Source of the DNA: Flavobacteriales bacterium
GTDB lineage: Bacteria > Bacteroidota > Bacteroidia > NS11-12g > UBA955
Length of the DNA: 45,422 nucleotides
Assembly: GCA_947459165.1 (NCBI GenBank)
Contig: CANHCW010000001.1
Span: 1-45,422 of the forward strand
Direction of reading: 5' to 3'
The notes under the pieces are model-generated. The model was not told the DNA's origin, made no database searches, and saw nothing but the letters and a program-made list of their open reading frames with translations. Of the stretch, positions 34,264 through 34,974 are shown one piece after another (the stretch's first letter is position 1; each line of letters opens with the position of its first letter). The translations under genes were made by a program, and so were the position numbers.

Positions 34264-34974
34264 ATGACCGAACCCCGCATTAACCCCAATGTATCCGTTG
34301 ACTGTGTTATCTTTAGCTTTGAGGACGATGGACTGGAAGTTTTGCTGATTGAACGAAATGCCGGCCAAAATCGGATAGAAGATGATTTGCTGGCACTGCC
34401 CGGAAACCTTATATACGAAGATGAAACTCTGGATGCGGCCGCAAACCGCGTTTTGCGCGAATTGACCGGTTTGAAGAATATTTATTTGGAACAGGTTTAT
34501 ACATTTGGCGATCCGGCACGCATAAACAAACAAAAAGATCAGGACTGGCTGCACAGTATCCGGGCGCATCCCGAGGCAAGGGTGATTACCGTGGCCTATA
34601 CTTCTTTGGTTAAAAAATCAAACTTTAAGATTTCACCCAGTTCGTTCGCAAGGCAAGCCATGTGGGTGAAGGTTAAAGAAGTTCCCCAACTTGCTTTCGA
34701 CCACAATGCCTTGCTTGAAAAGGCGTTGGAGTACTTAAAACATAAAATTTATATTGAACCTCTGGGTTATGAATTGTTGCCCGAAAGATTCACACTGGCG
34801 CAGCTGCAAAAATTATACGAAGCCATTCTCGACGATCATTTTGATAAGCGAAATTTTCGCCGGAAGGTACTGAGAACATCCTTTATCATTCCATTGAACG
34901 AGAAACAAAAAGGTGTTGCACACAAACCGGCGGGGCTTTATCGTTTCGATAAATCGAAATTTCACAAAATCTAG
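34264..34974 (+). CDS. NrtR/AraR-like transcriptional regulator: degenerate Nudix domain + C-terminal winged helix
   Basis: Nudix-box remnant [24 protein letters not shown] lacks the REUXEE glutamates. The C-terminal [32 protein letters not shown] is typical of the NrtR-family wHTH. Confidence 0.7.
   Translation: [236 protein letters not shown]

Follow-up and report, generated by a model that had tools for sequence, protein, structure and literature searches.

Which regulator controls a starch and maltose utilisation locus that carries none of the regulators otherwise associated with such loci? The question is raised by a stretch of 45,422 nucleotides (hereafter the window, positions 1 to 45,422 of contig CANHCW010000001.1 in assembly GCA_947459165.1, from a Flavobacteriales bacterium), which contains what appears, from its predicted gene products, to be an alpha-glucan polysaccharide utilisation locus (PUL) linked to the genes of a maltose phosphorylase pathway (Table 1). 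LacI-type regulators, which have a periplasmic-binding-protein fold, occur in alpha-glucan PULs of Flavobacteriia, and SusR is a membrane-spanning activator. The latter has been mentioned among the regulators of starch and maltose utilisation in Bacteroidota (PMC7641319). What the locus of the window does contain is the gene of an NrtR/AraR-family protein related to Nudix hydrolases (34264-34974, plus strand), which stands, as the initial annotation of this DNA had claimed, between a divergent catabolic operon and a gene for a major facilitator superfamily (MFS) transporter; the operon is headed by a sugar kinase gene. We consider this protein to be quite probably a sugar-responsive repressor of the starch and maltose genes around it.

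The initial annotation had seen no gene of the SusR, hybrid two-component system (HTCS), extracytoplasmic function (ECF)/anti-sigma or LacI type in the locus, and had therefore named the Nudix-related protein as the prime candidate for the control of alpha-glucan use. Pfam scans of those open reading frames (ORFs) of the window that have at least 100 codons and are not nested in a longer ORF agree, in that none of these regulator types was detected, and the sole other transcription factor gene that emerged, which encodes a MarR protein (17763-18212, minus strand), lies beyond the locus and is transcribed divergently from the gene of a kynureninase. The candidacy itself draws support from conserved synteny and operators, from the overlap of the operators with promoters and from structural precedent, all of which are taken up below.

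A Nudix-related transcription factor

Three Pfam families match the regulator above their gathering scores: NrtR_WHD (PF21906; 2.3e-26, 92.1 bits against a cut-off of 27), AraR_C (PF19368; 1.7e-13, 51.1 bits against 23.8) and, over residues 9-147, NUDIX (4.4e-9, 36.9 bits against 21.1). The two halves that had been recognised at the outset, a Nudix fold at the N-terminus and an NrtR-type winged helix-turn-helix (wHTH) at the C-terminus, were both recovered by this hidden Markov model (HMM) search, which the initial annotation had put forward as a check, and the peptides quoted for them fall at residues 47-70 and 172-203, respectively.

Of the proteins with a solved structure, the one that matches best in sequence is BtAraR, an NrtR-family repressor from Bacteroides thetaiotaomicron that responds to L-arabinose (BT0354; PDB 5bs6, 5dd4, 5ddg and 5deq; Chang et al. 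2015, PMC4666351), at E = 2.2e-41 for 5bs6 and with 37% identity over 225 residues by BLASTP; the NrtR of Shewanella and the NadQ of Agrobacterium come next. An AlphaFold2 model built from an alignment of 47 sequences (mean predicted local distance difference test score, pLDDT, of 89.3) superposes onto the Nudix domains of AraR and NrtR. Comparison of the structure with NrtR and AraR had also been proposed as a check, and a Foldseek search of the PDB places BtAraR closest, with six AraR chains at the top (5bs6/5deq, template modelling scores of 0.72-0.81), and the NrtR of Shewanella oneidensis (SoNrtR) next, then NadQ and 2fml.

The Nudix box reads R62-V63-L64-R65-E66-L67 in place of R-E-U-x-E-E, with two of the three glutamates gone and E66 kept. 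This replacement had been claimed for the single protein, and the pattern holds across the 47 homologues over which the conservation of residues in the clade was scored, V63 being nearly invariant and L67 invariant. The box of BtAraR (RVLAEL) follows the same pattern; indeed, the degenerate box of AraR is in keeping with an impaired GX5EX7REUXEEXGU signature as a criterion of the family. The protein belongs to the NrtR/AraR family of Nudix-related transcriptional regulators, and displays every family-defining feature that is open to computation.

Predicted operators at the promoters of the locus

Four palindromes had been named early on (at 34996, 38301, 34135 and 20561), and these prove to be the 21-bp extents of one conserved motif, with the consensus wwAGTGTmAwwwTkACACTww and the core GTGT-N7-ACAC. 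They have the top four scores in the window with a position weight matrix (PWM) built from 69 unique sites that were chosen by the exact core pattern, the next-best score being 2.9. The predicted operators (O1 to O4) occur at each of the four promoter regions that the locus contains, and nowhere else in the window. An exact core is found three times in the 45 kb (34138, 34999 and 38304) against an expectation of 0.44, and all three copies are intergenic within the locus.

The comparison with other genomes was based on a one-genome-per-species scan that gave 561 relatives, of which the best 80 (53-82% identity) were kept; these come from Flavobacteriales, Crocinitomicaceae, Cryomorphaceae-like bacteria, Chitinophagales and unclassified Bacteroidia metagenome-assembled genomes (MAGs), and their loci, numbered with an L below, were screened by tblastn with the window proteins as queries. 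All the loci retrieved belong to MAGs or metagenomes. When all patterns made of a 4-mer, a gap and the reverse complement were counted without bias in the 72 unique upstream regions, GTGT-7-ACAC came first, with 66 regions, and was followed by A/T runs; in 50 shuffles, no pattern occurred in more than 11 regions. The exact pattern lies no more than 350 bp upstream of the regulator gene in 67 of 71 loci, and every one of the kinase-bearing loci (64/64) has a site. Loci and window together, amounting to 1.26 Mb, hold 106 exact sites, of which 93 are upstream of locus genes. The sites before the MFS gene and within the divergon of the GH13 and type IX secretion system (T9SS) genes recur in L001-L009, and a SusD-anchored metagenome scan showed that 14 additional loci have a site in the same place before susC, with an exact core in six of them and the A-to-G variant of the window in the rest.

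A natural control that ties the sites to the targets rather than to the regulator is provided by L102 (GCA_963852545.1), where the orthologue is 69% identical and genes for a bestrophin, an M48 peptidase and three AIM24 proteins are inserted between the regulator gene and its targets. There, strong sites (8638, 15686 and 19165) have been kept at the GH13/T9SS divergon, at the MFS gene and at the kinase operon, whereas the motif scan of that locus found no operator before the regulator gene.

Both the operator and the residues that would read it have precedents. A 21-bp palindrome with a GT-N7-AC core is the norm for the family (Rodionov et al. 2008, PMC2330246), and the DNA in the BtAraR co-crystal holds AAAGTGTTACTTTTACAC, that is, GTGT-N7-ACAC (Chang et al. 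2015, PMC4666351). In BtAraR, the GTGT motif is defined by K179, R180 (which intercalates), N181, K184, K204 and R205 (PMC4666351). Their counterparts K195, R196, N197, R200 (a conservative replacement of K184) and K221 (in place of R205) are invariant in the clade, and H220 (in place of K204) is nearly so (90% or more).

Strong operator-like sites were also seen before genes that were not among the queries (L049 at 15462 and 18995, L043 at 16714, and L075 at 2738), which may point to additional members of the regulon in other lineages.

Promoter overlap and the sign of regulation

The -7 element of Bacteroidetes promoters has the form TAnnTTTG. The element of susC (TACTTTTG, 20567-20574) lies inside the spacer of O1, and the pattern GTG[TAnnTTTG]ACAC recurs, at the same offset of +3, in nine of ten unique susC sites. 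Likewise, the -7 box of the MFS gene (TAAGTTTG, 35002-35009) is inside the spacer of O3, and that of the kinase operon (also TAAGTTTG, 34130-34137 on the minus strand) abuts O2; in the kinase operons of Crocinitomicaceae the operator begins 3-4 nt downstream of the -7 box. The box of the T9SS operon (TAGTTTTG, 38329-38336) is 25 nt downstream of the start of O4, which places O4 on the -33 region. BtAraR acts as a repressor from operators on core promoters, and because the operators described here overlap or abut core promoter elements, the regulator would repress the genes of the locus.

Gene neighbourhood and the breadth of the regulon

Where 1.3 kb or more is available upstream of the regulator gene (69 loci), a BadF-type kinase gene is divergent from it in 64 cases, and where at least 7.5 kb is available, the kinase operon includes genes for beta-phosphoglucomutase (beta-PGM; 44 of 51 loci) and a GH65 enzyme (43 of 51). 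GH13 and MFS genes are also frequent in the kinase operon of related loci, and two loci outside the set of 80 (L102 and L104), in which the genes were annotated with Pfam, show the arrangement of the window. The co-localisation that the initial annotation had offered as a further check is borne out, in that orthologues with 53-82% identity adjoin kinase, beta-PGM, GH65, GH13 and MFS genes across lineages. The sugar kinase is the most constant partner of the regulator. In the Cryomorpha-like group (L012, 8784-9782, minus strand) and in L055 from a Chitinophagales relative (8832-9824, minus strand), an operator-controlled operon is led by a pfkA-type gene, which we take to encode 6-phosphofructokinase from its TSGGDAPGMNAA motif, as recognised by inspection and not by an HMM; in L055 another gene, for a protein of 526 aa, lies between this gene and that of the kinase. 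This arrangement suggests that the regulon extends into glycolysis. Because the kinase is the most constant partner and pfkA is included in some lineages, the core and presumably ancestral regulon would be cytoplasmic glucose and maltose catabolism, to which susCD and the secreted amylases appear to have been added in the clade of the window.

These observations bring forward the alternative that survives best, that is, a narrower regulator whose ancestral job was the control of the BadF-type kinase (and pfkA) by D-glucose, with the starch machinery being secondary or shared with an unseen regulator. The constancy of the kinase and the pfkA-led operons both fit this scenario, as do L021 and L068, which carry the kinase gene without an adjacent GH65 gene, the presence of only one operator within 20 kb in most Crocinitomicaceae loci, and the small pocket of AraR, which senses a monosaccharide. 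Yet operators also stand upstream of susC, the MFS gene and the GH13/T9SS genes in the window and its clade, about 85% of the loci have GH65 and beta-PGM genes in the operon, and one Crocinitomicaceae locus (L049) has an extra strong site, that at 15462, near a weak susC-like match. The narrower scenario, which differs from repression of the whole starch and maltose locus in emphasis (effector and breadth of the regulon) and not in mechanism, is somewhat unlikely.

The ligand pocket

The argument is at its weakest where it turns to the effector. In BtAraR, all the hydroxyls of L-arabinose are hydrogen-bonded by R34, R86 and H131 (PMC4666351). The corresponding R31, R100 and H147 are invariant in the 47 homologues, and because this triad is kept, the sugar ring probably occupies the same place in the regulator as in AraR. 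Three other residues of the arabinose pocket, G47, V92 and F129, are also kept (as G47, V107 and F145), Y5 falling outside the alignment. The residues that close the pocket round C4 and C5 are changed (F36 to A33 and F49 to L49), and so are G48 (N48) and G89 (E104). The residues of SoNrtR that bind the phosphates of ADP-ribose, N43, K76 and R98, correspond to A33, L67 and E104, from which it would follow that the phosphate-binding site is absent and that an acidic residue takes the position of R98.

The clade also has an insertion (residues 84-99) that is conserved in the homologues, with D92 and W95 invariant, and that directly precedes the ligand-binding R100; its residues 90-99 form a helix in the AlphaFold2 model, and it may take part in ligand binding. 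Taken together, the pocket rather favours a neutral ligand larger than a pentose, with maltose or D-glucose as the candidates, and makes sugar phosphates, ADP-ribose and arabinose unlikely. The initial annotation had listed maltose, maltodextrin and a glucose phosphate as possible ligands; maltose would suit the neutral, glucose-type pocket, whereas glucose phosphates are disfavoured by the apparent loss of the phosphate-binding site.

Relationship to AraR, XylR, NrtR and the regulators of starch use

The regulator resembles BtAraR in its two domains (a dead Nudix domain and a wHTH), in the degenerate box RVLxEL, the recognition helix DKRNFR, the operator core and the Arg/Arg/His triad, and both proteins are from Bacteroidota. 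BtAraR controls cytoplasmic sugar catabolism together with susCD-type PUL genes, as is predicted here for the regulator. It differs in that its regulon consists of araMPRDAB and the arabinan PULs instead of alpha-glucan and maltose genes (GH65, beta-PGM, kinase, GH13, MFS and susCD), in the four pocket-lining residues F36A, G48N, F49L and G89E, in the Trp-bearing insertion of about 15 residues before the second ligand arginine, in the wing contacts K204/R205 (H220/K221 in the regulator), and in having tandem operators where those of the window are single. BtAraR also shares its PULs with HTCS regulators, whereas there is no HTCS partner within the locus described here.

One could suppose, from the closeness of this solved and characterised relative, the identical operator cores and the preserved hydrogen-bond triad, that the protein is an AraR (or XylR) orthologue that senses a pentose and stands in a starch locus incidentally. 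The identity to BtAraR is merely 37%, however, and AraR and XylR, which are 33% identical, are already treated as separate branches. Furthermore, the operators stand on alpha-glucan genes, the arabinose pocket is altered at four positions and has an insertion beside R100, and neither the clustering with ara genes (araMPRDAB, abf) nor the complete arabinose-binding residue set of the AraR orthologous group is found. Where neighbours were annotated or ORFs read, no ara or xyl gene came to light, and ara genes are absent from the neighbours in the window and from the Pfam-annotated L102 and L104, the 80-locus synteny screen being blind to ara and xyl genes as it was queried with window proteins only. 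A pentose sensor is thus very improbable. XylR (BT0791), the predicted xylose regulator of the family in Bacteroides (Ravcheev et al. 2013, PMC3878776), offers a parallel as a sugar-linked branch in Bacteroidota that was predicted, like the regulator described here, through comparative genomics; it differs in its xylBA-xylT gene context, the comparison having been made by context alone and not by sequence.

NrtR in the strict sense, as represented by SoNrtR (PDB 3gz5, 3gz6 and 3gz8; Rodionov et al. 2008, PMC2330246), shares the fold, the 21-bp palindromic operator with a GT-N7-AC core and release of the repressor by a ligand in the Nudix domain. It is about 28-30% identical to the regulator in the structural alignment, and it differs in the ADP-ribose phosphate contacts and in its link to genes of nicotinamide adenine dinucleotide (NAD) metabolism. 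That the regulator is a genuine NrtR, responsive to ADP-ribose and adjacent to sugar genes by chance, might be argued from the NCBIfam search, in which the best match is the NrtR equivalog model (NF050029, 6e-37), and from two kynurenine-pathway (de novo NAD) genes in the window (4138-4668 and 18251-19597). This too is highly improbable, as the equivalog score of 127.4 bits is far short of the cut-off of 400, the motif and PWM scans of the window show no GTGT-N7-ACAC site near the kynurenine-pathway genes, NAD genes are not adjacent in more than 80 loci, and N43, K76 and R98 are all replaced; a role as an NAD regulator was accordingly rejected.

It is hardly credible that the protein is an active Nudix hydrolase without a regulatory role, as its homologues are annotated (public names include '8-oxo-dGTP diphosphatase', and E66 and E54 are still present), since judged by sequence the intact box with three catalytic glutamates is missing, V and L occupy two of the three glutamate positions throughout the clade, the wHTH is complete and has conserved DNA-contact residues, a conserved cognate palindrome exists, and BtAraR, with a similar box, is a characterised repressor.

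SusR and the LacI-type MalR are likened to the regulator by maltose- or starch-dependent control of alpha-glucan PULs, which for the regulator is the role proposed here, but they belong to unrelated protein families with different mechanisms. The regulator would therefore represent a non-orthologous displacement of SusR and LacI-type proteins in these lineages.

A model for the repression of the locus

In the model that we favour, a homodimer of the regulator would bind the 21-bp palindromic operators, which overlap a core promoter at each transcription unit in the locus, and would thereby repress susCD and the genes downstream, the operon for the kinase, beta-PGM, GH65 enzyme and two GH13 enzymes, the MFS gene, the gene for the cyclomaltodextrinase-like GH13 protein and the T9SS amylase operon. 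The catalytically dead Nudix domain would then bind a product that arises in the cytoplasm when alpha-glucan is broken down (maltose and D-glucose being the most probable), the winged-helix domains would reorient, and the repressor would leave the DNA, as BtAraR does with L-arabinose.

A number of points weigh against this model. That the protein binds DNA, dimerises and represses, and which effector it senses, are all inferred. A co-regulator might be encoded outside the 45-kb window (BtAraR shares its PULs with HTCS regulators), and within it six ORFs lack a Pfam match (4723-6372, 9142-9804, 10918-11898, 11898-13394, 16677-17060 and 25030-25512), although the last alone is near the locus. 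The -7 box of the regulator gene itself (34237-34244) lies downstream of O2 at a distance of about 85 bp, which makes autoregulation doubtful. With regard to the operators, the one before susC has a mismatch in its core (ACGC), and the core positions of the PWM are circular through the selection of sites by the exact pattern; independent support comes from the unbiased pattern count and from the way in which the susC site, despite its mismatch, stands apart in rank. The loci that were compared are akin, so conservation of the motif in part reflects shared descent, yet the spacers vary and there are 69 unique 27-mers. Finally, the kinase context is absent from five of the 69 loci (L034, L041, L043, L046 and L075, with 53-57% identity), of which L034, L043 and L046 are also without the motif upstream of the regulator gene, L041 and L075 having one. 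The regulators of these five loci are probably paralogues of another specificity, and the three that lack both the kinase and the motif argue that other specificities exist in the family.

Autoregulation is not part of the model: the distance between the -7 box of the regulator gene and O2 speaks against it, and L102 has no site before its regulator gene.

A wider scenario may be put forward tentatively, as a serious possibility that falls short of being likely. The clade could be the first branch of the family to sense a hexose or an alpha-glucoside, in which the insertion with its Trp and Asp, together with F36A, F49L, G48N and G89E, enlarges the pentose pocket of AraR for D-glucose or maltose; it could have displaced SusR or LacI-type proteins as the master switch of starch use in mostly uncultured aquatic Flavobacteriales, Crocinitomicaceae and Cryomorphaceae-like bacteria, and could reach into upper glycolysis (kinase and pfkA) via operators that hold the -7 box.

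Implications

The published range of the family extends, in the words of its discoverers, 'from NAD to pentoses'. The initial annotation had supposed a role in alpha-glucan use to be uncharacterised for these proteins, and a full-text literature search, with RegPrecise and subscription journals outside its scope, found no report that links an NrtR or Nudix regulator with maltose, starch or alpha-glucan. The regulator would therefore be a new specificity branch of the known NrtR/AraR family that works much as BtAraR does, and would extend the Nudix-derived regulators from NAD and pentoses to glucose-based sugars. Set beside BtAraR, it also lends itself to the study of how a Nudix pocket that takes a pentose is retuned to take a hexose or a disaccharide.

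The regulation of PULs outside gut Bacteroides is poorly known, as has been said of marine Bacteroidetes (PMC7641319). The regulator, its 21-bp operator and five target transcription units amount to a testable regulon for abundant and mostly uncultured freshwater and marine Flavobacteriales, and MAGs can be searched with the operator motif for genes predicted to respond to alpha-glucan.

Where the homologues P0002-P0120 are named publicly, they are called '8-oxo-dGTP diphosphatase', 'NUDIX hydrolase' or 'ADP-ribose pyrophosphatase'. Such enzyme names appear to fit none of the proteins that combine a degenerate Nudix box with a wHTH, and a widespread misannotation ('8-oxo-dGTP diphosphatase', 'NUDIX hydrolase') would thereby be corrected.

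Features of the locus and the remainder of the window

The coordinates of the regulator gene, the predicted operators and the target genes are collected in Table 1.

Table 1. Regulator, predicted operators and target transcription units in the 45,422-nt window (positions are those of the window)
Feature	Position	Strand	Basis or remark
Regulator gene: NrtR/AraR-family Nudix-related transcription factor, 236 aa	34264-34974	+	Stop TAG 34972-34974; Pfam, identity to BtAraR, Foldseek
Nudix-fold sensor domain, residues 9-147	34288-34704	+	Pfam NUDIX; conserved sugar-contact triad
Degenerate Nudix box, residues 47-70	34402-34473	+	REUXEE replaced by RVLREL
Clade-specific insertion of ~15 residues (84-99)	34513-34560	+	Absent from BtAraR and SoNrtR in alignments
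wHTH DNA-binding domain, residues 166-234	34759-34965	+	Pfam
Recognition helix DKRNFRRK, residues 194-201	34843-34866	+	Match to DNA-contact residues of AraR
O1, upstream of susC; core GTGTACTTTTGACGC at 20564-20578, one mismatch	20561-20581		PWM 16.7
O2, divergent intergenic region of kinase operon and regulator; core 34138-34152	34135-34155		PWM 23.1
O3, upstream of MFS gene; core 34999-35013	34996-35016		PWM 25.5; kept in L001-L009
O4, between divergent cyclomaltodextrinase-like GH13 gene and T9SS/GH13 operon; core 38304-38318	38301-38321		PWM 27.0
Target operon 1: susC (likely ATG 20606), susD, 160-aa ORF, DUF4961 surface-protein gene	20586-26396	+	Pfam, synteny
Target operon 2 (five genes)	26472-34113	-	Pfam/NCBIfam, synteny
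BadF-type sugar kinase, first in operon 2	33244-34113	-	Pfam; closest structures are MurNAc/GlcNAc kinases
Beta-PGM, second in operon 2	32588-33247	-	TIGR01990, 229 bits against cut-off of 189
GH65 maltose-phosphorylase-type enzyme, third in operon 2	30297-32591	-	NF010380, 1123 bits against cut-off of 838
GH13+CBM48, fourth in operon 2	27847-30300	-	Pfam
GH13, fifth in operon 2	26472-27845	-	Pfam
Target gene 3: MFS/GPH-type sugar:cation symporter	35060-36415	+	GPH_sucrose subfamily, 4.7e-25, below cut-off
Target gene 4: GH13 with cyclomaltodextrinase N-terminal domain	36421-38283	-	Pfam
Target operon 5: two genes for T9SS-secreted proteins	38360-42509	+	Pfam
T9SS-secreted 'choice-of-anchor X' protein	38360-39664	+	Por_Secre_tail
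T9SS-secreted GH13+CBM48 enzyme, 932 aa	39711-42509	+	Por_Secre_tail
Stem-loop GGCTATCA-gaaa-TGATAGCC, perfect 8-bp stem, flanked by an A-run and a T-run	26422-26441		Read from sequence

The longest reading frame of the regulator gene in the ORF listing of the window begins at a GTG and would encode 249 amino acids (34225-34974, plus strand). The ATG at 34264 is the likely start, because nearly all homologues have 236 residues and begin at that Met, and because a -7 box (TATATTTG, 34237-34244) lies 19 nt upstream of this ATG, within the longer ORF. The exact-match cluster P0001 is annotated from the upstream GTG, with 249 residues.

The kinase is neither a ROK protein nor a classical glucokinase, and its closest solved structures are Tannerella-type BadF-family kinases of N-acetylmuramic acid and N-acetylglucosamine (MurNAc/GlcNAc; PDB 8oqk, 8ow7, 8ow9 and 1zxo, at about 1e-57); the context of the GH65 pathway suggests that it may serve as a glucokinase. 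The MFS/GPH symporter is presumed, from its gene context, to import maltose or malto-oligosaccharides. No SusG-like lipoprotein amylase was found in the locus by Pfam/HMM annotation. The stem-loop at 26422-26441 is likely to be a bidirectional intrinsic terminator between the convergent susCD and kinase-GH65 operons.

Elsewhere in the window, genes for a 3-hydroxyanthranilate dioxygenase and a kynureninase occupy 4138-4668 (minus strand) and 18251-19597 (plus strand), respectively.

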